Of a stretch of 64,000 bases of DNA, positions 2,969-63,555 are shown in pieces (positions within the stretch are counted from its first letter, which is position 1; each line of letters starts with the position of its first letter). The notes under the pieces were generated by a model, which saw only the letters and a list, made by a program, of their open reading frames with translations, was not told the origin of the DNA and did not search any database. Source of the DNA: a virus. Location of the stretch: the IMG/VR virus record IMGVR_UViG_3300014208_000033, positions 43,669-107,668 of that record. The stretch is one strand, 5' to 3'. The position numbers were made by a program, and so were the translations under genes.

Positions 2969-2994
2969 CAACGGTTGGGGGCGCCGCGTTACAA

Positions 2995-3303
2995 GTGGCG
3001 GCTGCTGTTGCTACTACAGCCCTTGAGGATAGAGACTTAGTAGGTGAGTTCAAAAATAGGTTATCTACTAAAACTGCTGAGTATAGGCAGAACATCAAAA
3101 CTGGAAAAGGTATGACCGGAGCTATCATTGATGCTGCAACTGGTATCCCTGCTTCGATAGGTAAAGTCAGGTCAGCCCCGAAGAAGCACAGACCCTTAGT
3201 TGCCTTACGCGAGGCTGGTAGACTTTACGGGAGAATTCAGTTAGGCCCTTTGTGGTTTTTAGGTGAAGCGATTACTAAAGCTCTCAGAAAAAAACGTCGG
3301 TAA
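2995..3303 (+). CDS. Hypothetical protein
   Basis: Last + strand ORF before the terminator; start uncertain. Confidence 0.35.
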   Translation: MAAAVATTALEDRDLVGEFKNRLSTKTAEYRQNIKTGKGMTGAIIDAATGIPASIGKVRSAPKKHRPLVALREAGRLYGRIQLGPLWFLGEAITKALRKKRR

Positions 3304-13844: not shown

Positions 13845-13932
13845 TGGCGGATGCTGTAGGATTTGAACCCACGAATGGTTTCCCATTGCCGCATTTCAAG
13901 TGCGGTGCCATCAGCCGCTCGGCCAAGCATCC
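13845..13932 (-). tRNA. tRNA-Ser(UGA)
   Basis: Anticodon arm CCGCA-CTTGAAA-TGCGG, long variable arm, G73-CCA. Confidence 0.95.
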
Positions 13933-13935
13933 AGT

Positions 13936-14010
13936 TGGAGCCGACGATTGGATTTGAACCAACAACTTACTGATTACAAATCAGTTACGCTACCGTTGCG
14001 TCACGCCGGC
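13936..14010 (-). tRNA. tRNA-Thr(UGU)
   Basis: Anticodon arm ACTGA-TTTGTAA-TCAGT, encoded CCA. Confidence 0.95.
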
Positions 14011-14032: not shown

Positions 14033-14061
14033 ATAATACTCTAATCTTCAACTGGAGCCAA
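14033..14061 (-). promoter_or_regulatory. Sigma70-like promoter for the tRNA/ncRNA/modification operon
   Basis: TTGGCT-17 nt-TATTAT on the - strand; same GTATTAT -10 recurs at 19256, 49713 and 49775. Confidence 0.55.
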
Positions 14062-16108: not shown

Positions 16109-16726
16109 TCATGGTAAGTACCTCATAAACAGTTTAGTCAAGTGACAAGAGGTTTCAATCTCGCTAAGAGTCCAGAAGTTCTTTCCCTTAACGTAGTCAA
16201 TGTACTGCTTTTTGATTAGATGCCTAATCACATTGTTGATCCTGGTAGTGGAGAAAACGAATTCCGAATATTCGGAAAGCAGCGCCGAGTCTTTGCAGGC
16301 GATGAGATTTTCTCCGACAAGTAAAACCGAAACATCTGACGGATTCTTAATCTGCTTGAAGAAGGAGCCAACCTTTGCGAAGAGTTGCTTTCGTGATTGC
16401 AGAAATCGGTCAACGTAAACAGAGAAAATCGAAGCATAGATCCCCCCTATGCTCAGAACAACATTCTTCACTTCATCGAGTCCTCTATCGTCAGTATCAA
16501 CTGAGTAGTTGATGTTATAGTCTCTGAACAGGTTGAACCAATACTGCTTACCAAGCTTCTTCTTCAAGATGTAGTTACGCTCTGGATTCTTGGAGTTCCA
16601 GTAGTTGAAGATCAACGGTAAGCACTTGATGGAGAATGTAGGATTGACGAGATTAAGATCCTTCACTCTCCAAGTTTCCAGGGTATCTCGTCTAACAAAT
16701 CGTCGGTCACTGAAGGATCGTGGCAT
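16109..16726 (-). CDS. Hypothetical protein
   Basis: 205-aa ORF in the replication operon. Confidence 0.6.
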   Translation of the reverse strand: MPRSFSDRRFVRRDTLETWRVKDLNLVNPTFSIKCLPLIFNYWNSKNPERNYILKKKLGKQYWFNLFRDYNINYSVDTDDRGLDEVKNVVLSIGGIYASIFSVYVDRFLQSRKQLFAKVGSFFKQIKNPSDVSVLLVGENLIACKDSALLSEYSEFVFSTTRINNVIRHLIKKQYIDYVKGKNFWTLSEIETSCHLTKLFMRYLP

Positions 16727-26249: not shown

Positions 26250-27662
26250 TCAAAACGGAATGTCATCATCACCACTATCATCGTCATCAGACTCAGAATT
26301 AAGCTCCTCGTCCAAGTCATCGCTCTTAGCCTTCTTCTTAGGTTTGTCAGTCTTCGATTTCTTGGGAGCCTCATCCTCGTCGTCATCAGACTCTTCTGCC
26401 TTAGCAGGCTTCTTAGAAGGCTTCGGCTTCTCCTCTTCATCATCACTGGTCAACTCATCATCGTCATCCTTCTGAGCAGCCTTCTTCTCGGACTTCTTAG
26501 CAGGCTTCTTCTCATCCTCATCATCATCGAGGTCAAGGTCGTCATCATCAGACGACTTAACTTCCTTCACGTCCTCATCGTCAGTATCACTATCTTCCTT
26601 GGCGGGCTTCTTCGGCTTCTTAGGAGGGCTTTTCTCTTCCGAATTTTCGGAATCAACTACCTCGCCGTCGTCATCCCCAGGAGCCTCTTCCTTATCGACG
26701 CCAAGAACACGATACTGATCCTCAACAGTGATAGGACCATAGAAGTAATTCAGATCAGGAATGAGATTATTCTTCTGACACTCAAGCAGGAAAGCATGAT
26801 TAGCCTTAGCCTGCTTGAGAAGCTTCTCCATCTTCAGCTTCTTCTCATCAGAAAGCTCCTCAGGGATCTTGAACGGGAGAATCGGGAAGTCCTTATCCTT
26901 AGTCACAGCCCAATTCTGGTTAATCCCCTTACCCGACTTCTGAACATTAACCACAAATCCCTTGCGAGGATGCCAGAACAAAGGATACTTAGCAGGACAC
27001 TCCTTCAGCCACTTCTCCTTAATTGCATCCTCGCTCAAACCAGCAAACTCAGGCTCGTCTGCATGCTCCTCACAATACTCCGCAAAGGGAGTCGCGCGCT
27101 CCTGCATGAAGTTAGCGAAACTCTTCTGCCAGAAGAAATCAGAAATCTGGAACATCTCAAGCACTCGCTCGAATCCAGTCTCTTCCTTCTTCTTATAAAG
27201 AGCAACACCAATAAACCCAACCACCTTGCGAGCCTTAGCGGCCAGCGCATTCTTTGAAATCTTATTGGCAAGCTCCTCGTTACCATCAGCCTTAGCCTCA
27301 TTGAACTTATCCCACCAAGGCTTGAGACGCTTGCAAACAAGACACTTATCATCACCAGTACACTGAATAGAATACTGACGAGTATGAGGGAACAGACCAC
27401 CAGTCTTAGAACCCTTCATAGGACCGATAAAACTATGGATCTTCTGAATCTTCGGAGGAGGAATATAAAGACCGTTGAATGAACCGGAGTTATCCTTAGG
27501 AATGCAAGCGATATAAACTAAGTGAGAAGTGCTCTCACCGTCACGACCCCAAGCATGCCTAACAGCCTTAACGTAATCCATCTTCTTACCCTGACCGCTG
27601 CTCTTGCTAGCGTCGAGAAACTCTTCCTCTTCCTTGGTCAGAGTGTAGTCGCCCTTACCCAT
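26250..27662 (-). CDS. Single-stranded DNA-binding protein (gp32-like) with long acidic tail
   Basis: Zn-like C..C..C core, very long Asp/Lys-rich tail ending DDDIPF; between PolB and RecA. Confidence 0.7.
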   Translation of the reverse strand: MGKGDYTLTKEEEEFLDASKSSGQGKKMDYVKAVRHAWGRDGESTSHLVYIACIPKDNSGSFNGLYIPPPKIQKIHSFIGPMKGSKTGGLFPHTRQYSIQCTGDDKCLVCKRLKPWWDKFNEAKADGNEELANKISKNALAAKARKVVGFIGVALYKKKEETGFERVLEMFQISDFFWQKSFANFMQERATPFAEYCEEHADEPEFAGLSEDAIKEKWLKECPAKYPLFWHPRKGFVVNVQKSGKGINQNWAVTKDKDFPILPFKIPEELSDEKKLKMEKLLKQAKANHAFLLECQKNNLIPDLNYFYGPITVEDQYRVLGVDKEEAPGDDDGEVVDSENSEEKSPPKKPKKPAKEDSDTDDEDVKEVKSSDDDDLDLDDDEDEKKPAKKSEKKAAQKDDDDELTSDDEEEKPKPSKKPAKAEESDDDEDEAPKKSKTDKPKKKAKSDDLDEELNSESDDDDSGDDDIPF

Positions 27663-37816: not shown

Positions 37817-38119
37817 TGGTCCCGGCTCCCGAATTCGAATCGGGACGGTTGTTTAGACCGAGGGATTTTCTTACCACTATGATTTTCATCACCGCAAGAC
37901 TCTTGCGTTTGTGGTCTGGACTATACCTTCACCCTAATATTAGGGGCGAGCCGTCTAGTCTCTACACATTCCCATTACTTTACAGTAATGGTTAGCTCGG
38001 TGTTACCTCGAATTTTATCAGGGGGTTCACCGAATTTGACTCGATTCACTCTTAGAATTACTTCTAAGGTGCTCAAAATAAATCAAGTCCCCTGCGTCTA
38101 CCAATTTCGCCAAGCCGGG
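37817..38119 (-). tRNA. tRNA-Leu(UAA) split by a group I intron
   Basis: 5' exon 38119-38085 ends GGGGACTT; 3' exon 37869-37817 starts AAAATCCCT and ends AGCCGGG-A-CCA; splicing rebuilds the GGGGA-CTTAAAA-TCCCT anticodon arm. Confidence 0.92.
37870..38084 (-). ncRNA. Group I self-splicing intron (IC3-like), 215 nt, no internal ORF
   Basis: Inserted after U34, ends in G; P AAATTCGGTGAA, Q AACACCGAGC, R GTAGAGACTAGACG, S AAGGTATAGTCC; IGS-like TTGAG. Confidence 0.92.
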
Positions 38120-38848: not shown

Positions 38849-38919
38849 TGGGTCCGGCGGAAATCGAATCCGCATCAAAAGATTAAAAATCTTCTCGTCT
38901 ACCATTGACATACGGACCC
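38849..38919 (-). tRNA. tRNA-Lys(UUU), CCA not encoded
   Basis: GGGTCCG/CGGACCC acceptor, GAAGA-TTTTTAA-TCTTT anticodon arm, TTCGATT T-loop. Confidence 0.9.
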
Positions 38920-39313: not shown

Positions 39314-42300
39314 TTAACCACACTTACTCCAACCACATTTGGTACATTTCATACAACCTTCGGTTACTGTAGCATCAGCTTTACACTCAGGGCACTTAGG
39401 CTTGTCTGCATTGACAACATACTGAGAGAGACAGTTAGCTATGTTCACAGGAACCGAAAGCAATGACTGATTACGAACTGAAGTAAGCTGCTTGACGATC
39501 AACTCAGGTGAAACATTATGCCTTAACGCAAGAGAGGAGAGGCGACAGAGAGCTTCAGTTAGAACAAGTATTTCGCCTGTTGCTGTAGATGGAACTGAGA
39601 AAACTTCAACGGGTTTATCGTTATGCTTGTTCACGGTGATATAGAGTTTACCTTCGGTGGTTCTGACTTTGTAAGTGTCACCCGAAAGAACATGTGGGCG
39701 CTCGTTCAGATTTTTCGGAATCTCGGTAGCGCCGGTCGAGAGCACTTGACCCTTGCGAGAGCCGTCACGATAAACAGTTGTGCCCTTACAGTGAAGATCG
39801 TTGGCTAACATGAATGCTTTAGCTACGTCATCTTCGGTTGCAGAGTTCAATAAATTTGTGGTTTTACTCACCCCAAGATTAGTGAATTCTTGGAAGGCTG
39901 CTTGCATTTTAACATGCTGCTCCCAGGGTACTTGATTAGCTGTGACGAAGAGTTCAGCTTCATTAGAAAGTAGATACTTTGTGTCTACACCGTTCTTGAA
40001 TGTATAGTCATAGATTTCATCTTTAGTGGCCGAAGTCTGCATCTCTTCAACTAACTTCTGGAACAACGGATGAATTTCATTCATCTCTTGATCTGCTTGA
40101 CGACGCTTCATCACATACGCAAAGTTAGGCTCGATACCGGAACTGCAACCGGCGATGATAGAGAGTGTGCCAGTCGGTGCTATTGCGGTAACGGTTTGGT
40201 TCTGGTAATTCCTCAATACCCCGTAGTTAGTAGCTTCAGTGTTGATGAAGCTCATAAGGTCTTTAGCTACAGAGAGAGCGTGAGGGCTATTGTAGTTAAT
40301 GCCAAGCTTGATGAGAGCATCAGCCCAGCCCATTATACCAAGGCCGACCTTACGGTTTTTCTTGCAGATAGTTTCAATTTTCTTGAGAGGATATTTGTTC
40401 TTGTCAATCATGCGGTTGAGGAAATCAATTGCCGTATGAATGACTTTCTCCAGTTTGTCTTTATTGAAAGGTCTGTCTTTAAGTATTCGGCCTTCTACAT
40501 CAACGAAATTAGATACATTAATTGAGCCCAAGCAACAGGCTTCATAAGGCAGTAGAGGAGACTCGCCGCAGTTGCCAGTAACAAAACCATCCAGGACCAA
40601 CGTGTTAAACTCAATTCCTGTTGCACAGTACACGTCCTCATACTTACCTGTATCTGTGATCGATTCGATAGTGTCTTTGTAACCGCTCTTATCTTGGGTT
40701 TTTTCAGTGAGAGTCTTAGCAAAGACCGAGCGCATTAAGTTAAGGTCTTTTTGGAAGAAACTGATATTCTTGAGCCATGTATGAATAGGTCGTCCAGGTC
40801 CAATGAATAAGTCATGTGAATCTGAAGCTATGGTAACTCCAGAGATTTGTTTCTTGTTATAGCAGGCGGGTTTAATCTCGCCAAAGACTCCCATGCAAAG
40901 GAGTCTCTTCTGAATGTCTTTCAATAAACTGAGTGACTTGAAGTTAGTGAGCCAGAAGCAGTTCTTCCGCTTAAAGACATTTCCATTTACCTTGAAGAGC
41001 ATCTGGAAAAATCCGCGAAGAACGCTTATCTCACAGTTCCAAAGTATCTCAGGTAACTTCGTATCAGTGATAGGATTTACCTTGAGAACACTGAACAAGA
41101 AATCAGTTATCTCAGCAGAGTAGAAACCGTTCTTGTATGGATGAGTCCTAGGACGATAGATATTAGCGTACAGTAACTCATCAAATGCCGAGTCTTTCTT
41201 AGCGAGATTAGAGTCACAGAACTTAGAATGAACATACTGTAACCCTTTGAGTAATGATCGATAGGTTGAAGCAAACTCTGACTTACGAATCTTCTTAACG
41301 TCAACAGTGAATGTCAACTCACCAGCATCATTCTTTCTGAACCACAAATTAGGCTGAGTGTAGAGTGAAGCTAAGAAATGACCGAACTTGAGATTGTTCT
41401 TAGAATCTTCATTATCAAGTCGATGAGGCTTAACCCCCATCGGAGTATCAGTAGTGTAGATCATAAGCATCTCACCAACTGATAACTCTTCTAACTTCTT
41501 CTCAGAGTATGAGAATGTTCTTCTATCGCTTTTAGTTGTCTCATTAGTCTGCTTCACAGTGAAGAACTTATGATACTCAGTAGCCTCAATCTCAAGACCT
41601 GACTTCATCGTGATCTTATATATCGGAGCATTCTCCGCTGTCCGTCTAACCTTAGTGATGTTATGATGGTGATTATTATCAGTGACTCTCTTATCCATTA
41701 TAGCTGAGTAAATACTGTACGGATAGCTAGGTCCAGCAGCATCCTTCATAGTAGGACAGTGACCTGGGAACATTATCCTCGTAGACCCAACAACGCAAGG
41801 ATTGGTGCTCTCGATTTTACCTTGCTCTGGTGTCGGGTTATGACGGTTGATCTCATCTAAGAATATAAGGCCGGGCTCACCGTTGAGCCAAGCGTTCTTT
41901 ACGATTTTTCTGAATATCTCCTTTGCGGGAAGAGTCTGAACGACTTCACCGTTCTTCGGATTGATAAGCTCCCATGGGAGATCATTCTTAACAGCGTTCA
42001 TGAACTTATCTGAAACACCAACTGATATGTTAAAGTTGTTTAATGACTTCTCATTAGTCTTACAATCAATGAATTCCAAAACGTCAGGGTGACTCACTTC
42101 GAGGATGCCCATTAAAGCCCCCCGGCGCACCCCCCCTTGCTTGCAAACGTCCGTTATGGTGTTGAACACCTGCATGAACGTGACTGGCCCTGAACTTATT
42201 CCATTTGTCGAGTGGACCTTATCATTTCTCGGTCGTAACTTACTGAAGTTAATACCAACTCCACCACCTGATTTGAATATCAAAGCACATTCTTTAGCTG

Positions 42301-42574
42301 TATCAAATATGCTAGCCATCGAATCTTCAATTGGCATAACATAACATGCGAATAGGTTTCCTAACTTAGTCCCTGCTCCGGTGAAGGTGACTGAATTTGG
42401 CAAGAAATCTAATTCATTCATGATAGTAAAGAACTTCTGCTTCTCTTCGTCAGTGTCACCTAAGAAGTTGGCAACTCGCTTAAAAAGCATCTCAGGTGTT
42501 TCAATGATATTTCCGTTACCATCACGAAGAAGGTAACGCTTCTCAAGCACTTTTATAGCATTATCGGAAAGCAT
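39314..42574 (-). CDS. nrdJ: Class II (B12-dependent) ribonucleotide reductase with intein
   Basis: VLEKRYL, FLPNS, GGGVG, QGGVRRGA, GEPG, TNP^CGE, CCLGSIN, IAPTGT, C-terminal TSCPD-like domain and Zn ribbon. Confidence 0.92.
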   Translation of the reverse strand: MLSDNAIKVLEKRYLLRDGNGNIIETPEMLFKRVANFLGDTDEEKQKFFTIMNELDFLPNSVTFTGAGTKLGNLFACYVMPIEDSMASIFDTAKECALIFKSGGGVGINFSKLRPRNDKVHSTNGISSGPVTFMQVFNTITDVCKQGGVRRGALMGILEVSHPDVLEFIDCKTNEKSLNNFNISVGVSDKFMNAVKNDLPWELINPKNGEVVQTLPAKEIFRKIVKNAWLNGEPGLIFLDEINRHNPTPEQGKIESTNPCVVGSTRIMFPGHCPTMKDAAGPSYPYSIYSAIMDKRVTDNNHHHNITKVRRTAENAPIYKITMKSGLEIEATEYHKFFTVKQTNETTKSDRRTFSYSEKKLEELSVGEMLMIYTTDTPMGVKPHRLDNEDSKNNLKFGHFLASLYTQPNLWFRKNDAGELTFTVDVKKIRKSEFASTYRSLLKGLQYVHSKFCDSNLAKKDSAFDELLYANIYRPRTHPYKNGFYSAEITDFLFSVLKVNPITDTKLPEILWNCEISVLRGFFQMLFKVNGNVFKRKNCFWLTNFKSLSLLKDIQKRLLCMGVFGEIKPACYNKKQISGVTIASDSHDLFIGPGRPIHTWLKNISFFQKDLNLMRSVFAKTLTEKTQDKSGYKDTIESITDTGKYEDVYCATGIEFNTLVLDGFVTGNCGESPLLPYEACCLGSINVSNFVDVEGRILKDRPFNKDKLEKVIHTAIDFLNRMIDKNKYPLKKIETICKKNRKVGLGIMGWADALIKLGINYNSPHALSVAKDLMSFINTEATNYGVLRNYQNQTVTAIAPTGTLSIIAGCSSGIEPNFAYVMKRRQADQEMNEIHPLFQKLVEEMQTSATKDEIYDYTFKNGVDTKYLLSNEAELFVTANQVPWEQHVKMQAAFQEFTNLGVSKTTNLLNSATEDDVAKAFMLANDLHCKGTTVYRDGSRKGQVLSTGATEIPKNLNERPHVLSGDTYKVRTTEGKLYITVNKHNDKPVEVFSVPSTATGEILVLTEALCRLSSLALRHNVSPELIVKQLTSVRNQSLLSVPVNIANCLSQYVVNADKPKCPECKADATVTEGCMKCTKCGWSKCG
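40571..41797 (-). mobile_element. Intein (409 aa) at the RNR NP/CGE active site
   Basis: Starts CVVGSTRI, block B ATEYHKF, block F/G EDVYC...GFVTGN followed by extein Cys; degenerate LAGLIDADG LRGFFQMLFKVNG. Confidence 0.9.
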
Positions 42575-45500
42575 TTAATCCCCTAAAGTGTCGATGAACT
42601 CAGTAAGATACTTGATCGCGTGTTCCTTAGCTTCCTTGAAGTTAGTAAAATTGACCTTACCGTAACACTGTGCAGAACTCTTATAATTCCAAATTTCAAT
42701 ATCATCACTATAAAGACTGAAAGGTACTCCAACACCTGGGTTCACATTCTGAAAAATCGTAACAGAGTAGTTACCCTTATCACTGATAGCGTCAACAGTC
42801 CACTTGACATGCTTAAGAATCTTGATAGTCATTCAGTAACCCCTATGGTGTTCTAACGTCTTTGACAGAGATTCAGATATATCATCCAATTTTTCATTTG
42901 TTTTGCAAAGTTCGTTAGCACTCTCCAAATACTTAGTTATACAAGCAAAAATCTCACATTCTGCATCGTTTTCATTCCAAGCATAACATTTATAGTTTTT
43001 ACAAAGGTCTTTGATTAGTGGACAGAAATAGTTATCCATGTCATTTCACCTTCTTAAGTGCTTCAGCAAACATAGAAAGTGTCTCAGTCCAAATCTTCTG
43101 TTGAGATTCAATCTGCTTTGAGTGAAGATCGCTCTGTTCAAGTATAGACTTGAAGATCATCTTATGACTTTCTTCAACAGTCTTCCACAAGATGACTTGA
43201 GTACAAACAAGAATAACAAGCAAAGTGATAATGATAGCTTCCATCTTACTCTTCATCCTCCTTAAACATTTCATCCTGACACTCTTGACACAAACAACTA
43301 ATGTAGAACTCTTTCCTACTAATTTCATCCTTGAACTTATCAGCTAACTTACCACACTTGATACAGTGTTTCCAATCTGCTTCCTTACCGAAGAACATCT
43401 TCTGAACATTTCCACGAAGAGTCATTGAGTTACCTTCACATCTATAGTAACCTCGACCAGATCATAGATGAAGTTTGGCCTGAGTTCCTTCTCAATCCTA
43501 AGACACTCTCTAGCCTTCTTCTTATCCTCAAAGAAACAATTACTCATATCATTATGAAAATCATGATTAGCATCCCAGGTATGAAAGCTATCATCAATCC
43601 TACTGTAGAAAGCATTAGGGAACTTGAAGTTACTAAGCTGAACAGTGTAGAACGTCTTAGTCGTCATTGAGCCTCCAGTACATATATAATACAGCGTCAC
43701 TTAGAAGAAGTATACGATTTCTTCAACATATCAAAACTATTTGCATCCAACTTCATGAAAGTCTCGTTCATAACTTGAATAGTAACGATGATAGTCCTTA
43801 CAGAAACTTCAAGTTCTCCAAGTTCAGAACACCTAGTAAGATAATTCACATCATAGTTAAGAATTAAACACTTGCTACCAAAAAGTTCACCCTTAGTTAT
43901 CTTGAAGTGTTTCTTATCAAGAAAGAGAACTTTAGAGAAAATAGTAATAAGACCATTACAATGCTTCTCAGTGAAGCAACTATCAAAACTGTAAATAGGA
44001 ACCCAATTAGGTTTCATTGTCACTCCTTAGACATAATAGATTGGGTTTGTACATTCGTAATAATCACCATTACGACCATCAAAAACATAGTAAAACTTCC
44101 TAGTCTCCTCCTTCACAATAGTAATCGTCAAATTCTCCGCCACTACTATATGTGAATTCATTATCAGCAATGTCCCTTGCTTCCTTCAAAGACATATGAA
44201 ACTTCTTCATCAGATAGATCATTCTCTCACGAATCCAGTTATGCTCATACCTCTTCCAATCTCTATCATTTCGTGCGTAGACTTTCATAGTGTAGTTACT
44301 GAAACAACACTCCTTAGGATTAATTCCATGTCTCTCACACAACTCAGAAAGAGAGTAATCTTTTCGCTCAGGAAGAGTAAGAACAGTCCTTTCAGAATTT
44401 TCGGAAGGAGGAAGAGAAGTACCTTTAGTGTTTTGCCTATCTATAATTATAGCCAGATTTTCACTTATCTTAGTTAGTGTGTATTGAGATAGTGGAGTCA
44501 TTTCGTCTATTACTACAGAATGAAGTTTAGCTCCTAAGATTTCTCTGAAAGGAATCTCACTCATCACTTATACTCCGTACTAAACACAAATACGTTGTTC
44601 AGATCATCATTGGCCTTGTAACATCGCATGGAAATATCAATTCCACGAAAAACTAAATTCCACCTATCAGGGAAACTCATACCAGAATAAGCGTCATCGA
44701 ACGTATTGCAATCAAGCATTACATGATACCTACGATAATGCTTATCGTAGTAAGCCTTAAGATCCTGTTCATACCTACCATTGATAGGATCACTACAGAA
44801 AATCTCAATACATCTTTTAACATACCTGATATTTACAAGCTTACCAGTGGTATCAGTGAACGTATACAGTGGCTTCCAAAGATGATTAGTCTTCATGTTT
44901 TATCCTTCAATTCATAGGCTTCAGAACAACACAGTTGTTCTCTTTAGTCTCATCTTCATCTACGATTTCCCAGTAACACGAATCTATAGGTTCGCCTTCA
45001 GCTATGAAATATCCCCGACAAGGACTGTAAGAATTACCTTCTGAATCCTTACTCATGATAACTTCATAGTTACCACAACCACTGTCCCTAACCTTGATAA
45101 GTTGTCTAATCAATTCATTAACTTTCATCGTTCATCCTATAGGCCAGTTTGGCCTTGCTCCATGACCCATACATATTTCGAAACATGTTCAGTAACTCTT
45201 GCTTCAAGTTATGTGCCTTACGCTTACGTCTCCGAACAAGTTGTTCATACTTAGTGTAATGATATGCCGTAGTTGACACAGCGTTATGACCTAGATGAAT
45301 TCTTGGTTTGATCACTCCTAATGGTTTCACGTACCATACTCGCAAAGATATCCCATGCCTTTTCTCGTCGTATCCTGTGAGTGTAGAGGTTACGAAATTT
45401 CGTAATGAAAGTCTGACGACACTTATGATCCTTCTTACGCTGCTTAACAAAATCCCTTTGCGCTATCTTATCGTAGTAAGCTGTGCTATGCGGATGCGCG

Positions 45501-48109
45501 TGTTTCATCTCATATCATCCTCTACGTCATTACCACCAAAATCTTTGTCATACTTACTAAAATCACAATTGATGTTATCTCTAAGGGCTCGAAGCATTCC
45601 AGTCACACTTTGAATAGTATACTGAAAAGCGAAGTTACCGTATTTCTTCTCCTTAACGCAAGAGGTAATGCTCTCACACTCACGATAGATACGGTCGATA
45701 GCGTTGTAAATGTTATAGGGAATCTTCATAGTCAGTCTGCTCCTGTTCGTATCCGTAGTTGTAATCCAGTCTTACAGCATGAAACAAATCTCTGATCATC
45801 TTAACATGAATATTCAACTCAATCTCTTTTGGGTGCTCCTTCTTAATATCTTCACAAAGGACTTGCAGCTTGTTGTCTATTTCATTAAAAAAATCATTGA
45901 TAGTGTAGTCGTGTTTCATAATCACTCATCCTCATCTGGAATAGCATTGTCACTATTGTAGTGCTCGTTTTCTATCTTAGAAGTATTGGCAATCTTGGTT
46001 AAAATTCCAACGACATTCTTAAGAGAAGAAGCAACCTCACCTTCATTATTGATATATGCAACACCAGACAGGATATTAGTCTCCCTACAGATTCTTAGAA
46101 GATCACGCTTGAATTCATGCTCATAAACCATATCAATCGTCCTCCCCGTCTTTAGCATAGTGCATACTCTTCATCGTTTCCTTGAGTCTCGTATTCCTAT
46201 TCAGTTCCTCGTACAACTCATCCTCTAGCTGAAATATCTTCTTAATCAACTCCTCTTTCGAGCGTTTCATAAGGTCTATTACAACTTGATCTTTCATATC
46301 AAGTTCAATCCTACTCATCGCTAACATTCCTTCCTTCTATCAACACGTCGCAAGAGGCTATGATCATCTTCAGAGCAGTAATGAATTCTCCATCACACTT
46401 GGGATCATTCTCAGTATGAACAAGAACACCCCTGAGTTCATTCACAGCTACACAGAACTCGTAGTTAATACGTCTCGATATGTTCATTCAGTTTCACACA
46501 ACCATTCAATATGCTTAAGCAACACATGCTCAACTTCAGTAGGAATTCTCTTCTCAGTCGTTCCATCTTCATAGAATATCTTAATCAGGTCAGGTTCTCC
46601 AACGTCAACTATAAGAGTAGCATGAGCAATCTTACTCATCTTCTGGATCTCCTGAATTTACACCATTACTAATGTCTTGAAAAAAGTTTCCGATATTTCG
46701 TAAAGTGGAGTTAAGTACATAGTTATCAGGATGCTCATCTTCTGCAATACGAATTAGAGAGAAAATAACACCACAAAGAGCATCGAGTTTCTTTTCAAAT
46801 CTCTTAGAGCACTTAAAGTAACTCACTTCTCACTCTCCAAGCAATCAAACAATCCTTGAATCAGTTCAGATATCGTTCTTACAATAAGTCGAAGAGGAAG
46901 ATTGTTTGGTTGTTCACGGTCAACGGTATTAAGCAAGTTTACTGCCATCATACACATGATATCTACTTCTTTTGCAAATCCCTCAGAACACTTCATTCGT
47001 ACCCTCCCACTCATCACAAAACCTATCACAAGTCATATCTCTTACAGCTTCATCGTAGTGATCCTTAGCACATTCCAACTTCCTAGAAAGTCTCCTGGCT
47101 ACATCTATGCTGATCTTAATGTCGGTGTTCCTGTTGTCCAAAGGGTGATCCAGAATAGCTAACATGAGTATCTCAATGTCAGTTTTCTTAGTCATCGTCA
47201 CTCCTCTTACAATCTTCCTTGTGGTGCATAGTTCTCATCATCTCTTTGAGCCTAGTAACTTCATTCAGTTCGTTGTACAACTCATCTTCCAGGTCAAGTA
47301 TCTTCTGAATGAGTTCACCCCTATCAGCATTCCGAAATCTATCAAGGTCAGATAGACTTATATCACTCATCCTCAGTCTCCCTGATATCACAATCATCAT
47401 GCATACCTTGAAGAGTGTACTCCATCGTTTTCAGAATATTCGTAAACTCAACCAACCCTTGCGAACGAGCCGAAGCCGCAAGGGATCTGGCATTTCTCAT
47501 CATGTTCCAAAGCTCAGACTTAAAGAGGTCGTCACACATGCTCATATGTCACCACATCTTCTCAGGTCCGAGTATCTTTTCTATCTCTTTGATCTTCCTA
47601 GAAAGATCCATTAACTCTCTGCAAAGAAGTCTATTCTCAGTTTTAAGCTGTGAATTTTCTTCTTTGAGTTCGCTCTTAGTAAGCTCTTTCTTAGTCATAA
47701 TCTATATCACTTTCTTCTGAAACTTTTACATATACCAACAATTCTTCTGCTTCATCAATTGTGAACTCGACATAAGGAGTAGAAATACTGTGTTTATAAT
47801 CATCGATAGCTTTTTCAATGACTTTACTCAGCAAACGTCTAGTCATTTCGAGTTCTCCCTATCACAAGTTTCCCTAGCTTCCTGTTCATCAGCGAAGCAC
47901 TCACTATCACACCGAATGAACACTTCTTCAACACCAGTCATATTGTACTTAATACCAAGAGAGTCAATAGTTATCCTCGTAACTCTCCCACTCTTAACCT
48001 TCATCTTAGTAACAACACTCACATGCCCGCAAAGCTTGCAAGTTTCCTCGACATTATGACTAGGAGTAAGAACCCAAAGAGTATCACCGATATTAACCAT
48101 TTTTCTCAC
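42575..48109 (-). other. Dense run of small hypothetical genes, several paralogous
   Basis: More than 20 tightly packed 60-155 aa ORFs; paralog pairs 46133-46327/47188-47400 and 46632-46826/46823-47029. Confidence 0.7.
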
Positions 48110-48573
48110 TTCCCCTTTATCGTCATGCTCTTATCAAGAGAAACAGCTATCCCCATGATATCACCGCAAAGGTATTGGTTGGCTATATACCTAGCAAACC
48201 TCATCCCCATTATCTTGAATCGCTGTTTGAATTTCTTACCATGTCCCACATACGGATGAACCAACACATGGCACAACTCATGGATATAAGACTCACACAC
48301 TTCCATGAAAGTAGTGTCACCAATATCAAGACCTATATGAAAAATACTATCCTTCTCATTATAAACACAGTAACCAGCAGCATCGACACTCTTGTTTCCT
48401 CTTCTTATTGGTATCGTCGATCTATGAAATCCAACCACTATCTTGCTCTGATGCTTCCTTCTCTTATACACGTCGTTGAACTGCTTTTCAATAACCTCAA
48501 GCGGTCCCATTGTGTTCCTCCAGTTTTCCGAAAATTCGTAAAAAGACACCCCGAAAATAAGCATCTGGATCAT
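48106..48573 (-). CDS. SprT-like zinc metalloprotease
   Basis: AAGYC, HELCH...GHGKKF. Confidence 0.75.
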   Translation of the reverse strand: MIQMLIFGVSFYEFSENWRNTMGPLEVIEKQFNDVYKRRKHQSKIVVGFHRSTIPIRRGNKSVDAAGYCVYNEKDSIFHIGLDIGDTTFMEVCESYIHELCHVLVHPYVGHGKKFKQRFKIMGMRFARYIANQYLCGDIMGIAVSLDKSMTIKGK

Positions 48574-48599
48574 GAGTTAGACACTTAGAGCATCTACTA

Positions 48600-49706
48600 G
48601 CATCTTGACCCTTAAGAAGTACTCCACGCTATCAATTCATAACTTGCCTTCCGGCTCTAAACCGTGTTGCCTTGCGGTACTTCTCATTTACCTTCGGAAT
48701 CCAGCCTCTTTTCTTTTCTTCGTCTTACCGAACGGAGAGAGGAAAATACGCTTCGCGGCGCCAGCCGCGATGGGGAGAGTGTGAGAGGGGAGGCGTTAAG
48801 CCTCCTCTTTCACTAGCAGCTATTCAGAATTTTCGGAACCGTCATAGATTGTCGCCTCACAATCTCTTGCGGTTCTTCCTATTCTATAGAAGCTGCTTTG
48901 CTCTAAGGAGATGAGTCATCTCGCTTAATTCAGTGAACTTTCCACCTGATTGATCTCAATCATCAGAAAGTCAGATAGACGCACTTCAAGATCCTGCATC
49001 TTAGGATAGGGATCTCGCTATCGATTTCCATACCCTAAACTTGATCCAGTTGCAACCTCCTCCGAATTACGAATATTCGGAAGTATGCAGACTCCACCAC
49101 GATAAGGCTCTGCTGTTCCTTATCGACCGCGCTTATCTAGTTTCGCGCGCCCATGCAACGAGTAACGAGTTCGTGTTGAAGGGGGCTTCATCTTCGACCA
49201 ATAAAGTTGTGGTAATCCACCCGCAGAGATGCTATGTTTAGATCGTAAGTAACAAAGCATCTCCGCACTCAAGGACGAGGCTAATCTACGCCTTACGGCA
49301 GGACATTATACCAGAGAAGTCTTAAACCCTACGTCTAACTGGACTATCGTTAGATTTCGAATATACGACTATTCAGTGAAGGCTTCGCTTAGTGACCTCA
49401 ACGCTGAAGATTACTTACTAGGTATTTTGGCGGGAGCTACCCACTCTCCAGCTAAACCACTTTACTAAGCCTCCGAATGAACGTGTCCTAATGTCCTCTT
49501 AGCACCCCATCACAGTGAAAACCTTATCTAGCCACAGGTCTATTTACCTCTAGCTTGATCTTCCGGCCTCGAATCAGTAGGCTAGGTTCACTCTCTTGCG
49601 ATTAGCTACTCCCGCAAGATCATTACCCTTTTGCAATGCAGCTACCTATCTACACCGTATTCATCAACAACGGGCTTGATCCATTTCTGGACGTGGCTTG
49701 CCCGTC
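48600..49706 (-). ncRNA. Candidate ~1.1-kb highly structured non-coding RNA (or origin region)
   Basis: No credible ORF; more than 12 helices, GNRA loops on the - strand, promoter just upstream of the first helix. Confidence 0.6.
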
Positions 49707-49712
49707 AAGGAG

Positions 49713-49780
49713 ATAATACATTAGAGGAGTAATGTTAGCAACAAGTTTCTTTTGTCTTTATTTTACTAACATTGTATTAT
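49713..49780. promoter_or_regulatory. Back-to-back sigma70-like promoters
   Basis: - strand TTGCTA(49741-36)-17-TATTAT(49718-13); + strand TTGTCT(49752-57)-17-TATTAT(49775-80) followed by AGGAGG. Confidence 0.7.
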
Positions 49781-49802
49781 ACATGTAGGAGGTTCTTGTT
49801 AT

Positions 49803-50996
49803 ATGATTGAAAAAGTATCTGAGTTAAAACATAAGTTAGGGAACTACTTTAGCACTAGACGTAAGATTGGTAAAATCTTATATGCTGGGCGTTACTATAA
49901 TATGAAATCTTGGAATGATAATGGTTTCATTAAGCTTCAAGTTCATCTAGGATTAAAGAGTCTCATTTTAACTATCTTAACTGAGCACAGCGAAGAAGTA
50001 TTAGAAGAAACAATGACTCGTTTCTCTAAGAACTCTAACCCTACTCCCTTTATACAAAGCCTTAGTTCAAGGATACTAACAGGTAAGAAGCCTAAAACTT
50101 GGAGGTCTAGTGCAAATTTCCAACCTGTTATTAGGATAGTCAATACACCGAAAGTTCAAAAGAACTACGTTGGAAACAAACCAAACATAGAATTCTTGAA
50201 CAAGTTTGATGAACACTTTGGAGTCTCTACTCATAGGCTTATCAGAAGCCTAATTATGTTCTATTCAAGTTTGTCTTTGAAGAATCGTTTCAATGATGGT
50301 ATCGTAACAACCTTCTTAGATGATAAGAAGGTTGACTTGAAAGACAACGATACTCAATACGAAATCTACAAGAAAATCTATGATGAGTTCAACGATCCAT
50401 TTGTACTTAGGTTAGCTCTAACCCCTCAGTATCATTTCAGATATCAGGGAGTGAACTTCAACGGCTTCTTTGAACTACTTAGGTCTATCTACACTAGGAT
50501 CTATTCACCTAAACCTAGAGGTCAGCAGTACGGTATAGTTGATAGAGCTACTTACAAGCAACTTGTAGAGCGTCTTAACAACATCAAGGGTGATGTTAAT
50601 AAGATGATGCACTTCATGAAGTTATCTGCTGCTTACTCTATCTGGTTATCTAAGTCCAAGGGTATTGAACTCATCGTAGATAAGTCTCAGTTCCTCATTG
50701 ACGATAAGTTCAATCTAGGTGTATGCTTCTTAGAGCAACGCCGAATGTTCGATCCGTTCCCAATCGAAGACCTCAAGGAAATGCTCTCTTGCGGTTACTT
50801 CTATAACCCTTGGGAGTATCTACATAATATACTCTTGGGCTCATCACCTAAGAGTATTGCTTATCTTGGTAATTTTAGGAAGATCAAGTACCAGTTACAG
50901 TTGGATAGATTGGATGCTAAGAGTGAAAAAGAAAGAGTGCAAAGCGATAGTTCCGTCAAAGAAGGATCTAGCAGTATTCAAACCGTCTCTGTTTGA
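49803..50996 (+). CDS. Orphan 397-aa basic protein
   Basis: AGGAGG RBS and own promoter; no motif recognised. Confidence 0.75.
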   Translation: MIEKVSELKHKLGNYFSTRRKIGKILYAGRYYNMKSWNDNGFIKLQVHLGLKSLILTILTEHSEEVLEETMTRFSKNSNPTPFIQSLSSRILTGKKPKTWRSSANFQPVIRIVNTPKVQKNYVGNKPNIEFLNKFDEHFGVSTHRLIRSLIMFYSSLSLKNRFNDGIVTTFLDDKKVDLKDNDTQYEIYKKIYDEFNDPFVLRLALTPQYHFRYQGVNFNGFFELLRSIYTRIYSPKPRGQQYGIVDRATYKQLVERLNNIKGDVNKMMHFMKLSAAYSIWLSKSKGIELIVDKSQFLIDDKFNLGVCFLEQRRMFDPFPIEDLKEMLSCGYFYNPWEYLHNILLGSSPKSIAYLGNFRKIKYQLQLDRLDAKSEKERVQSDSSVKEGSSSIQTVSV

Positions 50997-51564
50997 CAAG
51001 ATCGATGAGAAGAAAATCTCTAACTACATAGCGATCATCAAGCAAATGGAAACTAACAACTTAGAAGATAAGCGCATCTGCACCGTGTTAGGTTTAACTC
51101 AAGCCCACCTCGACCTTTTGCGGTCTAGTCCTGATTACGATAGTACCTTTATGACGAACGTAGACGACCCGGCAGAGGCTATCAGACAATCAATGCAGAA
51201 CACCGCTATAAAGGCTTCTGAGCAATTGGAGAGGCTTGTAGCGCAAGGGGATATGGATGCTATCAAGGTGGCACTGAAATCAGTTGGTGCTGACAAACCT
51301 GCTGAAACTCAAATGGCAGACACCACTAAGTTTTTCCTGGATTTGCTTGGTAAGATCGGGATCAAATCGCACGATAGAAAAGCGAGCGATCAGATTGAAC
51401 AGTTGAAGTCAAAGAAGAAAGATGCGAAGTCTGAAGATCAGTTAGCCGACGAAAAGATCATGGATGCGGAGTATGAGATTTTAGGTGACGACGATGTTGA
51501 TGAGGGTCTAAAGGAAGAGGTTCCCGTAAAGAAGCAGAGCGACATGGAAGACACCGAAGACTAG
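50914..51564 (+). CDS. HTH protein, terminase small subunit-like
   Basis: HTH-like DKRICTVLGLTQAHL, ASEQLERLVAQGDMDAIKVALKSVG, acidic tail with IMDAEYE. Confidence 0.5.
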   Translation: MLRVKKKECKAIVPSKKDLAVFKPSLFDKIDEKKISNYIAIIKQMETNNLEDKRICTVLGLTQAHLDLLRSSPDYDSTFMTNVDDPAEAIRQSMQNTAIKASEQLERLVAQGDMDAIKVALKSVGADKPAETQMADTTKFFLDLLGKIGIKSHDRKASDQIEQLKSKKKDAKSEDQLADEKIMDAEYEILGDDDVDEGLKEEVPVKKQSDMEDTED

Positions 51565-51616
51565 GATCGGTACGAGGAACGTACCTGAGATTCAGAAAAT
51601 TCGGAAGAGTGAGATA

Positions 51617-51649
51617 AGGCCCCCGGATTTCCGGGGGCCTTTTTGTTTC
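51617..51649 (+). terminator. Intrinsic terminator between convergent genes
   Basis: AAGGCCCCCGG-att-TCCGGGGGCC-TTTTTGTTT. Confidence 0.85.
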
Positions 51650-52522
51650 CTTTGGATTTTAGAGCGATTTTGTTTTAGCGCAATTTCAGAATCTTAGGCA
51701 TCTCTTTAGTCTCTTTTGCTTCGATGAAGGCGTTTGTGAAATCCCAAATCCAGTGGTTGCTTTGGTTAGCCCAATCTTCGTGATTAAGCTCCAAGCAAAC
51801 CTCGTCAACCATGGTATCGTAGTCTCTTATGTTCTTAGTCCAGATGTTCTCAAGGATATGCAGGACTTTCTTCTTAAATCCAAGATGCATTGTCATTATG
51901 AAGTCTTCGTTTTTGAACGATTTCATATACCCCTCTCAGTGAATGTAAGTTGCGAATTGATACATCTTACCACGCTCATCATCAATACGCAATTGGTTCA
52001 TCATCCTAGCGTAGATATCGCCTTCCTCTTTGAGCTTCTTCTCAAACTTCTTAATGAACTTCTCGAACTTAGTCAGAAAATAAGTCACGTTGTTTTCATC
52101 GTCAAACTTATGAGGATTTTCCTTCACAAAGTTATCGAAGTAGATGATTAGGTTGTTTGCTCGAATATCGTACTGGATGATTTTGTTGTACCCACGAATT
52201 ACAATCCCGATGATTTTACTTAGCCTTAGCATCTGCTTATCTCTTATTATGTCTGATTCAGTCATGTAGTTAGGACTGAAACTAGGAAATGCTTCGTAAT
52301 TGTAGTTGATCCTATCGAAGTACCCCTGCCTGATGATGATATCACATATTCTTGTGATATATTCAGTTTCCCATTGGTTCTTAGATTTCTTTAGTTCGTT
52401 TACAACTTCACCGAAATAGTACAGATGCTCTTCTTTCAAGCACTAATCCCCCAATACATACTTAAGCCAACAAATTACCAACACGGTAGTTCCTAGACCA
52501 ACGTAAAGGATTATATCTTCGT

Positions 52523-53032
52523 TCATATCTTCCTAGCTACAATCTCAAAACTGTATTCGATTTTACCACGATTTTCGTAATCGTAGATACCGTTAGGTGG
52601 GCCGTAACAAACACAGTATTCGAGTTCAGTGTTACCCATATTGATTAGAACGTCTAGCACATCTTCTGGATTGAAATCATGTTTGTGACCCTTGTTAGCC
52701 AAAGGATGACCGATATTTGGATACCACCTACGATGAGGCAAGTAAAGGATAAGATATCCGCCTGGTCTAATCAGATCAACCCATTGGTCGAGAGTAGTTT
52801 CAGTGTCAGTGAAATCTTCCAAGGTATGAGAAGAGAAAACGTAATCAAACTCACCTGGCTTGAACCAATCAGAAATTTGGTTGATATTGATAACCATATT
52901 CACTCCAGGTTGAATACGACTATCTATACCAATTGCTTCTGGACTAATCTTGTCGTCACCGCACCCGATATCAATTCCATGACCTTGACAATACTTGAGT
53001 ACCCTTTCACGGCACTTAGAAGTCTCACCCAT
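52523..53032 (-). CDS. SAM-dependent methyltransferase
   Basis: IDIGCG, IGID, FDYVFSSHTLED, IRPGGYL. Confidence 0.85.
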   Translation of the reverse strand: MGETSKCRERVLKYCQGHGIDIGCGDDKISPEAIGIDSRIQPGVNMVININQISDWFKPGEFDYVFSSHTLEDFTDTETTLDQWVDLIRPGGYLILYLPHRRWYPNIGHPLANKGHKHDFNPEDVLDVLINMGNTELEYCVCYGPPNGIYDYENRGKIEYSFEIVARKI

Positions 53033-53243
53033 TATTCCTCATATCCAATCCTAAACTTTCCGACCCGTCGTTTTTGATCCAGTTCATTATCATACACACA
53101 TTCAGAACAGATATACTTAGTCTTACCGTACTGAGTAAATGAAACGAGTTCATCTATCTCAAACAAAGAGTTACAACCCGAACACTGTCCTTGACTAAGA
53201 GGATTATCGAATACAGTTTGGTCTTTGTTAATCCAGGAATGTA

Positions 53244-54356
53244 TCACTGTTCAACTTCATCCTTCTTATAGAACCTACAGCGTTTCAACACAGTATTACC
53301 TTTGTCGTCATGTTCTACGTTACCGACAATGTTATAGATATTTCCAGTCTCTATCTCTTCCTTCCCGGTGTACTTAATCAGAACTTTACCGATTTGGTTA
53401 CTCGCGTAAATGTAATACTTCATACCGTATTGCGTTTCGTAACCCTTGCATGAGTCGATCTGAAATGTATCGTCAATCCTAGTGCCATCCTGGGCGTTGT
53501 AGTGGCCGATTTTGGCTACCTTTGTGGCCCCCTCTTCCTTAAGTATAATATAAGGAATACTAGCTAAAATCCCACAATATTTCCACTTCGGTTTTTCCAA
53601 CGCTACCTTACAGTTAGATATGTACTCACTGAATGGCTTAGTGTCAAGCCACAACTTAATCCTCTCAAACCAAGGCTCAGTAACTACCGTCTTGCAATCT
53701 TCCAGTTCTGTTTTAGCGTGCTTCTCAGCCCAACCCTTGTCAGTGAGCATCATCATAAGGAAATTGCTTGTAGCAAGTACAGGCGGATTGCTATCACGGG
53801 CCATGCTCGCAGTAGTAAACTCACCTTTGCGGGAGTAGTGAGCGCAAAGGGTAAAGAACCTATCAAGATCCTGGATATACGGGTAACTTCGCTTGAAACA
53901 ACGTTCCGAAAAATCGTAATCGTCCTCGTTCAGAGTCTCTACACCTTCAAAGACGACTTCAAACTCTTTGAGAAGTGAGCTAACAGTAATCTCAAGGTTC
54001 ATATTCTTAGCGCAAGAGCCACCGACTTGCATAGTCTTACCTTTGAGACTAACAACAAAGACCTTAGTACGATTTCGGTATTCGTTGCAGCAGTTACAGA
54101 TGTTTGGGTTGAAAGTCTTAACGTAAATCTCATTCCAAACGTAAGTCGGGTCGAGACTCATGATCATTCCGTCTTTCCAGATACCAAGGATATTCGGAAG
54201 ATCATCTTGCTTCTTAAGTCGAGGCTGAACAAGTAACCAAGTAATCGGTTTGACTTCATTCTTGTCGATGATTACGAAATCAAACTTAGGCCACTTATCG
54301 CATATCTCCTGATACTTATCTTCGTAGATCCATTTAGCATATCCTCGACTAATCAT
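53244..54356 (-). CDS. Conserved-looking phage protein (Zn motif + OB-fold-like C-terminus)
   Basis: CNCC...QVGGSC; C-terminal ETQYG...VEH...TVLKR. Confidence 0.55.
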   Translation of the reverse strand: MISRGYAKWIYEDKYQEICDKWPKFDFVIIDKNEVKPITWLLVQPRLKKQDDLPNILGIWKDGMIMSLDPTYVWNEIYVKTFNPNICNCCNEYRNRTKVFVVSLKGKTMQVGGSCAKNMNLEITVSSLLKEFEVVFEGVETLNEDDYDFSERCFKRSYPYIQDLDRFFTLCAHYSRKGEFTTASMARDSNPPVLATSNFLMMMLTDKGWAEKHAKTELEDCKTVVTEPWFERIKLWLDTKPFSEYISNCKVALEKPKWKYCGILASIPYIILKEEGATKVAKIGHYNAQDGTRIDDTFQIDSCKGYETQYGMKYYIYASNQIGKVLIKYTGKEEIETGNIYNIVGNVEHDDKGNTVLKRCRFYKKDEVEQ

Positions 54357-61284: not shown

Positions 61285-63555
61285 TAGATTTCCTTCCTGT
61301 TACGTTTGTGTTCTCACATGATGCAAAAAACCTCACTCATTTAAGAGTGAGGCTTAATTGCTAGTAACAAGTCTCGTTCAAAGCTCGCAGTACCTCTACT
61401 GCCGTCCCCAAATCCCAAACCTCAGTCAACTTCAGTTCCTTTCCATCGGGATCAATCGCAAAGATTGCATATCCCGAATCGATCTTCCTCGACTCGAACT
61501 TGCACTTGTAATGAGAGTCGTCCATTTCATTTCTCCTTTCAGTGAACATTGTAGAGATAAGTCTCGAACTTGTTAGGATAAAGTTCAGACTTGAAGTAGA
61601 CCTTAGCGTAGTAGTTGTTCTGAAACTTTCCTCCATTCGTCAGAACATTTATTCTGGATGAAACAAGATCCAGAATCTCACTTTCATCCCTTACGTTTAT
61701 GGTTTCGACAGCACCTTCATTTGAAATCGAGGTTCCGAAAGTTGAAACCTTTCGTGAATCAATGATCTTGACGATGAGCATGTGAAACTTCCTTCCTGTT
61801 ACGTTAGTGTTCTCACTAGATGCAAAAAACCCATTCCGAATATTCGGAATGGGTAATTTGTGTTCTAACCAAGCAAGTTCCAAATGTAGATAAACAACTT
61901 CACACTAAGAGCAATTCCAGCGATGAGAACAGGAATACCAACAACACAAATGATCAGTTCGATAAGAGTGTACCCATTACGATTCATTTCATCCTCCATT
62001 TTCTAAACCGATTTTAGACCGATTTTCCTACAGAAGATCCCGAACCATCTTACTGATTTCGCTCCGAATGTACTTCGGAACGTTACCGTAGAAAATCTCC
62101 ACGGCGTCAAGGTTAGCTCGAAACTTACTAACAAAACCCGTACCCTTGCGAATCTTTCCGCAAAGGATTGGATTACCGTTCCGGTCAGTATCGATAGAAC
62201 TAACTGCCACATTCCACGACGTGTCATTGTAATTCATTCTAGCTACTCCTTTAGGAATGACTCGACCAAGTGTTAGTAGACTCATCGAAGATCAAGCCGA
62301 TGGTAATGAAGCGTTTCATAAGAGTAGCAACACCAACGTCTTTTTGAACTTGATTTACTTCTAGGATGAAACTCTTCTTACAGAAATCAGGAAAGATGTT
62401 GACTACGGTAGCAATACCGTTTTGCATGTATCGTCGAATGAAAAGCGAAAGATAACGACCAAGCCCGTTTTTCTTGAACCAACAATGATTCTTCTTCGCC
62501 CATTGAACAACGTTATTCAGCCGATGTTCCTTATTCGGGTGTTCTTTGGTGAAATCCACAAAACCACCAGGAATTCTCATCTTAATACCTCCAAAATCAC
62601 GCTAACATTAGTCACATGATGCAAAAACCCCACCTAAATTAATAGGTGGGGTTAGATGTTTAGATCAAGAGTCCGGCATCGTTCAGTACATAGTACAGAT
62701 TAGCAAATAGCACCGAAAGATTAGCAGGTTGACTGTAATTTCCGAACATATCCTTTTGATATGCGCGGAAATGTGCATTGTCCTTATCAATCCAACTCTT
62801 TATGGTAAGAGTTTCGTCGTATTGCATTATCATTTCCAGCTTCAAAATCGGAGCACTGTCCTTTTCACCGCGATAACCATCGATGAAATCCCACGAAATT
62901 GGCGGGTCGTTTTCTATTGCCCAATCGATGATAGGAATCAGCATCAGTTTAATTCGATCCTTGAATTCTTCCGTTATCATCGCGTTTCCATTTTTTCCTC
63001 CAGTTTTAGTCCGATTTCGTTTTTAGTCCGATTTTCATGCCGATTTCCGCATGGTCACAAGTCTAAGCGAATAGGCTATCGTCACATAACTAAAGCTAAG
63101 TCATGTGACGATGTTAGCTAACTCTGGAGCCGCGCCACCATATCAGGTTAGGCACGACTACCATTAACATTGTCACATGATGCAAAAAACCCCTGCAAGC
63201 AATTAAGCTCGCAAGGGTTAAATGCTATGGTCGGTCGTGATAGTGAAACATTGCTTGTTCTGGAGAGTACCAATCAAACGGAGAATCGTATTGACTTTCG
63301 TTGACGAAGAAGAATTCAATCTTACCGTTGGAATTGTCGTGACGAACATATCCGAAAGTCTCAGTGTAGAAATAGATCGTCCAACCGTTTCCCAATTCAA
63401 CGTAGAATGCAGGAAGTGAAGGATAAGGACGATCAGGATCAATGTGAAGCTGATGGAAATGTAGCACAACACTCCAATCTTCCGAATTTTCGGAATTTGT
63501 GGCCGTCACCAAAATCAGCCGAAACCAATCGGCTGAAATTTCACAAGTCACGTCG

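Follow-up and report, generated by a model that had tools for sequence, protein, structure and literature searches.

In the 64,000-nucleotide window of phage DNA analysed here (bases 43669-107668 of the 107,668-bp IMG/VR record IMGVR_UViG_3300014208_000033), the gene-free stretch between 48574 and 49802 is probably the locus of a new large structured non-coding RNA, about 960 nt long, encoded by the minus strand and outside all described families; this candidate is held with moderate confidence. It is the best-supported reading of the stretch because coding capacity is lacking, the G+C content is raised, the folding z is about -7, the structural ensemble is well defined, the region is conserved in related phages and no Rfam family matches it. 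The first-pass annotation of this DNA had proposed a giant non-coding RNA together with a cognate protein partner. The RNA part of that proposal is supported by the lines of evidence just named, whereas those for the partner, the adjacent gene product referred to here as protein A, are circumstantial.

Coding capacity and composition

The gap at 48574-49802 is bounded by a minus-strand SprT-like gene with its ATG at 48573 and by a plus-strand ATG at 49803. Each of the six frames contains 14-34 stops in this interval. The few open reading frames (ORFs) of 50-80 codons have codon-usage scores of -0.13 to 0.09, compared with 0.32-0.44 in the neighbouring genes. Reassignment of a stop codon was considered and rejected, since treating any single stop as a sense codon yields no more than about 156 open codons. 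The G+C content of the gap is 0.44-0.49 versus 0.32-0.41 on the flanks. The stretch had been singled out as the only one of kilobase scale free of genes; this is correct within the window, but elsewhere in the phage, beyond the window, a second stretch of at least 1.1 kb is also devoid of ORFs.

No tRNA or transfer-messenger RNA was detected by ARAGORN in 48000-50200. The 4227 families of Rfam 15 gave no match in the region, either at the gathering score in a scan of the whole window or at E <= 10 in 48400-49900. Covariance models of GOLLD, ROOL, OLE and the group I and group II introns, for which a search had been recommended at the outset, were among those that gave no match, and the same was true of HEARO.

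Folding and choice of strand

The significance of folding was assessed by comparing the minimum free energy (MFE) with that of dinucleotide shuffles, over 48740-49712 (973 nt) in the long test and in 150-nt windows in the sliding test. The minus strand of the long segment folds at -348.9 kcal/mol compared with -296.6 +/- 7.4 kcal/mol for the shuffles (z -7.1), and the plus strand at -299.8 kcal/mol (z -6.2). Both values lie far from those of shuffled sequence; a folding energy typical of shuffles was what the first-pass annotation would have regarded as speaking against an RNA. On the minus strand, z was -2 to -7 in most of the 150-nt windows of the region, two windows being at about 0 and -0.9, and it scattered around 0 over the flanking genes. 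The long-range z and the sliding windows taken together indicate that the structure signal is real and local. All of the helices listed in the first-pass annotation are present in both the MFE and the centroid structures of the minus strand. For the 7-nt pseudoknot GCGGGAG/CTCCCGC proposed with them, a pairing of this length is, by our own estimate, expected by chance in 1 kb. The parts of the candidate, from its 5' end, are the following.

48745-49706, minus strand: candidate structured RNA of about 960 nt with predicted ends, recognised by its z, its ensemble and the lack of an Rfam match and of an ORF
49670-49705, minus strand: 5' hairpin ACGGGC...GCCCGT around UCCA-GAAA-UGGA, found in the MFE and centroid structures and one of four GNRA hairpins
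49153-49635, minus strand: predicted 5' domain with several branches, enclosed by long-range helices; this half varies more
48775-49150, minus strand: predicted 3' array, some eight local hairpins that are conserved best

The two strands differ in how sharply their structures are defined. Ensemble diversity on the minus strand is 0.105 per nt, with pairing states at p > 0.9 for 67% of the positions; on the plus strand the corresponding values are 0.226 per nt and 35%, and in four coding controls they are 0.185-0.289 per nt and 20-44%. Hairpins with four-nucleotide loops number 21 on the minus strand, and 4 of these carry a GNRA tetraloop; the plus strand has 15, one of them GNRA, and the share in the window as a whole is about 4%. 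It had been argued that both GNRA loops and G-U pairs favour the minus strand. The loops do so, but the G-U pairs (32 on the minus and 25 on the plus strand) are non-discriminating, and the two strands share 156 of about 300 pairs. What speaks for the minus strand is its ensemble definition, its GNRA loops and the ordered promoter-like and terminator-like sites described below.

Promoter-like and terminator-like sites

The promoter sites previously assigned to the two strands, on the minus strand at 49741-49713 and as a mirror site 10 bp away, do exist as sequence matches. The motif TTGNNN-17-TATTAT occurs six times in the 107.7-kb contig where 2.3 occurrences are expected, and two of the six are the divergent pair at the gene-free region; that a third directly precedes a tRNA cluster is a point in favour of the candidate RNA. 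The sites between the SprT-like gene and gene A are as follows.

49713-49741, minus strand: promoter-like TTGCTA-17-TATTAT with a predicted start near 49706
49752-49780, plus strand: divergent promoter-like TTGTCT-17-TATTAT for gene A, followed by a ribosome-binding site AGGAGG at 49789-49794
48753-48770, minus strand: weak intrinsic-terminator-like site and possible 3' end, made up of a G+C-rich hairpin and a U-run set apart from its stem
48574-48752, minus strand: spacer or 3' tail that precedes the SprT-like gene and lacks promoter-like sites on this strand
48106-48573, minus strand: SprT-like gene (weak match to phrog_6361), which heads a run of small minus-strand genes

The terminator-like hairpin 48770-48753 is preceded by a second, very stable hairpin. 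By direct reading of the sequence, the U-run begins 6 nt past the stem, and this displacement means that termination may be leaky. Extended complementarity of the region to the rest of the phage genome was not found; the only matches were palindrome copies and a 20-nt promoter and ribosome-binding-site segment, which makes it unlikely that the RNA acts as an antisense to phage genes. The 20-nt segment is 49774-49793, which covers the -10 region and ribosome-binding site of gene A; an exact counterpart is present at G000:11351-11370 on the other strand, and the two may represent a common expression signal.

Conservation in related phages

Near-identical DNA is present in sequencing runs from groundwater, wastewater and freshwater. 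Four runs (X3, X4, X7 and X10) were aligned to 45000-54000, and 40 of the 757 differences are listed individually. In X7, 48795-49200 is 97.0% identical (12 of 406 positions differ) and 49541-49721 is 87.3% identical, and 48639-48794 is unalignable. The genes of this relative are 77-90% (SprT-like), 93% (C-terminal half of A, and B) and 78-96% (others) identical. In X10, identity is 97.0% over 48699-48967 and 87.7% with 8 gaps over 49238-49710, the genes being 85-96% identical. In both of these diverged relatives, which come from wastewater and freshwater metagenomes, the identities make the 3' hairpin array the best-conserved segment of the 9 kb. Change in the 5' branched domain is about as fast as in coding sequence, and insertions and deletions are tolerated there. 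As judged from these alignments, related phages conserve the region no less strongly than the genes beside it.

In X3 and X4, whose contigs have 26-28 reported differences, the 11 that are listed cluster at 48472-48652, as do the listed insertions and deletions. Record 18 of X4 spans 48976-51543 and thus carries the non-coding region, A and B on one contig. Record 24 of X7 joins 49541-49721 to 50364-51422 over 576 unalignable letters; these replace 49722-50363, which comprises the promoters and the N-terminal half of A. Four wastewater runs labelled RNA-Seq contain the stretch. X3 and X4 are flagged as probably DNA and the flanking genes are covered too, so they have no bearing on expression; no run on record as RNA is listed among those that contain the stretch.

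Proteins A and B

Two genes follow the gene-free stretch on the plus strand.

49803-50996, plus strand: protein A, 397 amino acids (aa), basic (isoelectric point, pI, 9.6), predicted to be mostly helical, member of a small family with no known domain
50995-51564, plus strand: protein B, about 172-190 aa, acidic (pI 4.5), with a helix-turn-helix (HTH)-like N-terminus and an uncertain start codon; it has a homologue in the distant locus L003

Protein A was initially described as an orphan, which proved incorrect. HMMER, run exhaustively against 1.84 billion representatives, recovered six clusters of homologues. One is 76% identical; the other five are 27-33% identical where they match and 20-25% identical across the full alignment. 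All the homologues are 332-378 aa long with pI 9.4-9.7, and the family has 16 invariant positions including H138, Q185, D198-P199, R203 and Y230. The homologues P0002, P0004, P0005, P0007 and P0011 are located on contigs of 5.3-24 kb. No family was assigned to protein A by Pfam, PHROG, NCBIfam or PADLOC. A PADLOC match to Csm2 (E 7e-4, 54 aa) involved one member of the A family only and was disregarded.

Structure prediction and Foldseek, the checks suggested for protein A, gave an AlphaFold2 (AF2) model that is mostly helical, with a mean predicted local distance difference test score (pLDDT) of 63.6, and nothing at E <= 0.001 in PDB and BFVD; nothing above 0.9 was found in the ESM Atlas. The best VIA-align Z of 6.7 (residues 1-97; Zuotin four-helix bundle, VP35 and similar) corresponds to helical-bundle noise, and DnaD-like fold matches at Z 4.1-4.2 are within the same noise. 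Protein A is also mosaic: its close homologue P0002 is near-identical over residues 200-330 and strongly diverged in the N-terminal half. This mosaicism and the replacement in X7 suggest that the N-terminal domain and the promoters have recombined or evolve fast. No paralogues of A or B were found in the phage genome.

The conserved N-terminal residues of protein B (DKIDEKK..YI..IK) lie upstream of the gene-caller ATG at 51046 and begin at the stop codon of A (50994-50996). The true start therefore abuts or overlaps this stop; it may be a non-canonical codon or the ATG at 50914, in which case B would overlap A by 83 nt. The model of protein B is poor (pLDDT 55.5), and its HTH-like fold matches are weak (Z <= 6.5). 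A profile of the terminase small subunit, phrog_7067, matched 25 residues of the B homologue in L003 at E 0.097 and did not match B of the window.

A distant locus with the same layout

Relatives were sought in several collections. None was found among IMG/VR viral contigs with protein A, the SprT-like protein, the A-family alignment, the DNA polymerase or a 20-mer of the conserved core, and none among GTDB genome contigs with the A alignment or a 22-mer. Searches of 50,697 phage records by blastn with the region and by tblastn with protein A gave 0 matches. The JGI metagenome contigs yielded a single distant locus, L003, a contig of 5,208 bp.

L003 carries an A homologue at 1643-2644 (25% identity), followed by a B homologue at 2616-3104 (28% identity, E 3e-16). 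The only Rfam match in it is a bidirectional terminator at about 3070-3160; beyond this, minus-strand genes occur, including a small methyltransferase like that at 52523-53032 of the window. Upstream of A, L003:1-1642 has no ORF longer than 80 aa and a G+C content of 47-54% versus 36-41% downstream. A well-defined minus-strand fold with strong hairpins is predicted for L003:1-860 (ensemble diversity 0.108 per nt, 68% of positions at p > 0.9). Two direct repeats of about 100 nt were read directly at L003:650-860, and several strong G+C hairpins and terminator-like sites are found at L003:300-600. The layout of L003 supports a conserved non-coding function at the same position, short of establishing homology of the RNA.

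Proposed model and points against it

If the stretch encodes an RNA as proposed, transcription would start at the promoter-like site 49741-49713, run leftward and stop at the pair of G+C hairpins near 48813-48753. The product would be a stable RNA accumulating early in infection and acting in trans as a folded scaffold or a protein-binding RNA. The 3' hairpin array would be its functional core and the 5' branched domain a structural platform. Basic protein A, produced from the divergent promoter 10 bp off, and perhaps the acidic HTH-like protein B might serve as its partners. The order non-coding region, A, B is kept in the close relatives and in one distant relative, and the wider gene order is kept too. 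A role of A as RNA-binding partner is thus speculative, being suggested by its basic charge, the divergent promoter region and its adjacency in a generally syntenic neighbourhood. It is conceivable, though doubtful, that the RNA and A, possibly with B, form a phage-specific ribonucleoprotein, which would found a class of about 1-kb RNAs and be a module across a deep, uncultured large-phage lineage.

Several observations weigh against the RNA. The asymmetry of G-U pairs is weak, and because the plus strand folds well and half of the pairs are symmetric, room is left for DNA-level or plus-strand readings. The terminator-like site is non-canonical, and sigma-70-like matches in the stretch are at the level of chance (9 found versus 7.4 expected in shuffles). 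No similarity between the region and L003:1-1700 was found by blastn or nhmmer. The 700 nt of L003 beside gene A have a diffuse ensemble, with z of -1.7 for the minus and +0.75 for the plus strand.

Alternative readings

The same transcript could be a long structured 5' leader acting in cis on the leftward operon, which comprises the SprT-like gene and about 15 small genes. The folded leader and the weak terminator-like hairpin would then control read-through, stability or processing downstream. The candidate RNA and the downstream genes are indeed on the same strand, the interval from the hairpin (48753) to the ATG (48573) contains no promoter-like site, and a displaced U-run should let termination leak. 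However, at nearly 1 kb it would far exceed the known antitermination and attenuation leaders, and none of the riboswitch, leader or antiterminator families of Rfam matched the region. Furthermore, in X7 the operon side (48639-48794) is unalignable and the core is 97% identical, which fits an independent functional core better. A leader of this kind is considered rather unlikely.

It is improbable that the stretch is an element working at the level of DNA, such as an origin, a packaging site or a protein-binding site, served by basic protein A and HTH-like protein B, with hairpins that are incidental or operate as DNA structures. The folding of both strands and the symmetry of half of the pairs would agree with such an element, as would its location at a divergent promoter pair and strand switch, the weak HTH-like N-terminus of B and the very weak match to a terminase small subunit. 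Copies of a palindrome are a further point in its favour. The 16-bp palindrome TTCNGAANNTTCNGAA occurs in the window in 21 copies with at most one mismatch (0.55 expected), mostly within genes, for example at 16262-16277, 26637-26652, 48823-48838 and 61834-61849. Four copies fall within 48526-51606; those starting at 48526 and 51591 are nearby, within 2 kb, and two are inside the region:

48823-48838, no strand assigned: TTCNGAANNTTCNGAA copy within a long hairpin closed by GCAGCT/AGCTGC
49067-49082, no strand assigned: TTCNGAANNTTCNGAA copy with one mismatch, from the palindrome search

The helix CTTCCGAAT/ATTCGGAGG, earlier counted among those of the RNA, does form in the fold, but it is a copy of this genome-wide palindrome and is not specific to the region.

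On the other side, iterons or direct repeats beyond chance are absent from the region, where only short two-copy repeats were found. The region is G+C-rich, above the genome mean, and not A+T-rich. Protein A has no match to an initiator, Rep or DnaA-like family in the profile libraries searched, and its fold matches are within noise. The minus-specific definition of the ensemble and the GNRA loops point to RNA, and a uniform 97% identity over about 500 bp exceeds what scattered binding sites need. Finally, a better place for an origin or packaging site is available in the second ORF-free stretch, G000:1170-2990 (L004:270-2090), which is near the left end of the contig and outside the window. 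It contains clear iteron-like repeats, with at least six GTAACGTTCCGTTAC-like units, five CCTGGAGCG-like units and three of TTGATCCTATCA, and folds with z of -4.8 and -3.9. This second stretch is a candidate origin, packaging or regulatory region and, judged by its repeats, a better candidate for a DNA-level site than the gene-free stretch of the window.

A non-functional spacer or decayed acquired element with incidental folding is very improbable: selection is hard to measure in so rare a lineage, but in two diverged relatives the stretch is conserved as well as the neighbouring genes or better, a z of about -7 with a well-defined ensemble is unexpected for decay, a syntenic G+C-rich ORF-free region is kept in a phage with proteins about 25% identical, and no known element was matched in Rfam or in the 50,697 phage records.

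Relation to known systems

Large structured RNAs are seldom encountered, and for the handful carried by phages (GOLLD, ROOL and the long non-coding RNAs of ICP1 and phage K) no function is known as yet. GOLLD and ROOL are large ornate RNAs common in phages and prophages, frequently beside tRNA genes. The present region resembles them as a large (0.6-1 kb), hairpin-rich and G+C-enriched non-coding stretch in a phage. It differs in that neither covariance model matches it even at E <= 10, in that it is not linked to tRNA genes (the nearest, 38849-38919, is about 10 kb off) and in its greater length. The lack of a model match and of tRNA linkage places the region outside GOLLD and ROOL. It would be a new family within the large phage-borne structured RNAs.

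The lytic phage ICP1 produces an abundant non-coding RNA of about 800 nt from an ORF-less gap of about 1 kb that is not tRNA-linked (PMC7567579), and the lytic phage K produces abundant long non-coding RNAs from an ORF-less gap (PMC9241854). A kilobase-scale ORF-less gap in a large phage is common to these two and the present case. Expression has been shown for them, whereas here the evidence is computed structure and conservation, and the region has no sequence similarity to GenBank phages.

A further comparison is with the RNA II primer, the long folded RNA that starts ColE1-type replication, and with R-loop origins. The likeness consists of a promoter, or here a promoter-like site, followed by a long folded transcript, here a candidate one. 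Unlike such origins, the region has no antisense partner, origin features or iterons; the phage encodes its own helicase, UvsX-like recombinase and family-B-like polymerase, and more origin-like repeats lie at G000:1170-2990. The other proposal of the first-pass annotation, a primer RNA or origin with A as its initiator, was not upheld, as neither iterons nor an A+T-rich unwinding element were found in the region and no initiator family was found for A in the profile libraries searched.

IscB with its HEARO omega RNA, TnpB and the IS110 bridge RNA also combine a protein of about 330-400 aa with an adjacent structured non-coding RNA, which is a candidate in the present case. Protein A differs from these proteins in having no RuvC, HNH, DEDD or transposase domain by Pfam, NCBIfam and PADLOC. 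The candidate RNA is on the strand opposite to A, and HEARO is not matched.

If the proposed RNA is real, a new class of about 1 kb would be added from a phage lineage without a cultured relative. It would offer a new RNA architecture and a tractable hypothesis, with the conserved protein pair A and B as testable partners. The rarity of the lineage limits the present value of the finding.

Source phage and other features of the window

The IMG/VR record is classed as linear and about 71% complete. The window carries a module of replication and nucleotide metabolism with a DNA polymerase, a DnaB-like helicase, a further DNA helicase and a UvsX-like recombinase. The polymerase is only about 25% identical to any GenBank phage polymerase, from which the lineage is taken to be deep and uncultured. 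The same module holds an intein-bearing ribonucleotide reductase (RNR), tRNAs and one group I intron, the sole match to the Rfam covariance models of such introns being at 37900-38094. The gene of the RNR large subunit (39314-42574, minus strand) is split by the intein, with the Pfam domain Intein_splicing inside the barrel domain. Another copy of TTGNNN-17-TATTAT, at 14033-14061 on the minus strand, is followed by AC and lies, as a promoter-like site, directly upstream of a tRNA cluster at 13848-14010.

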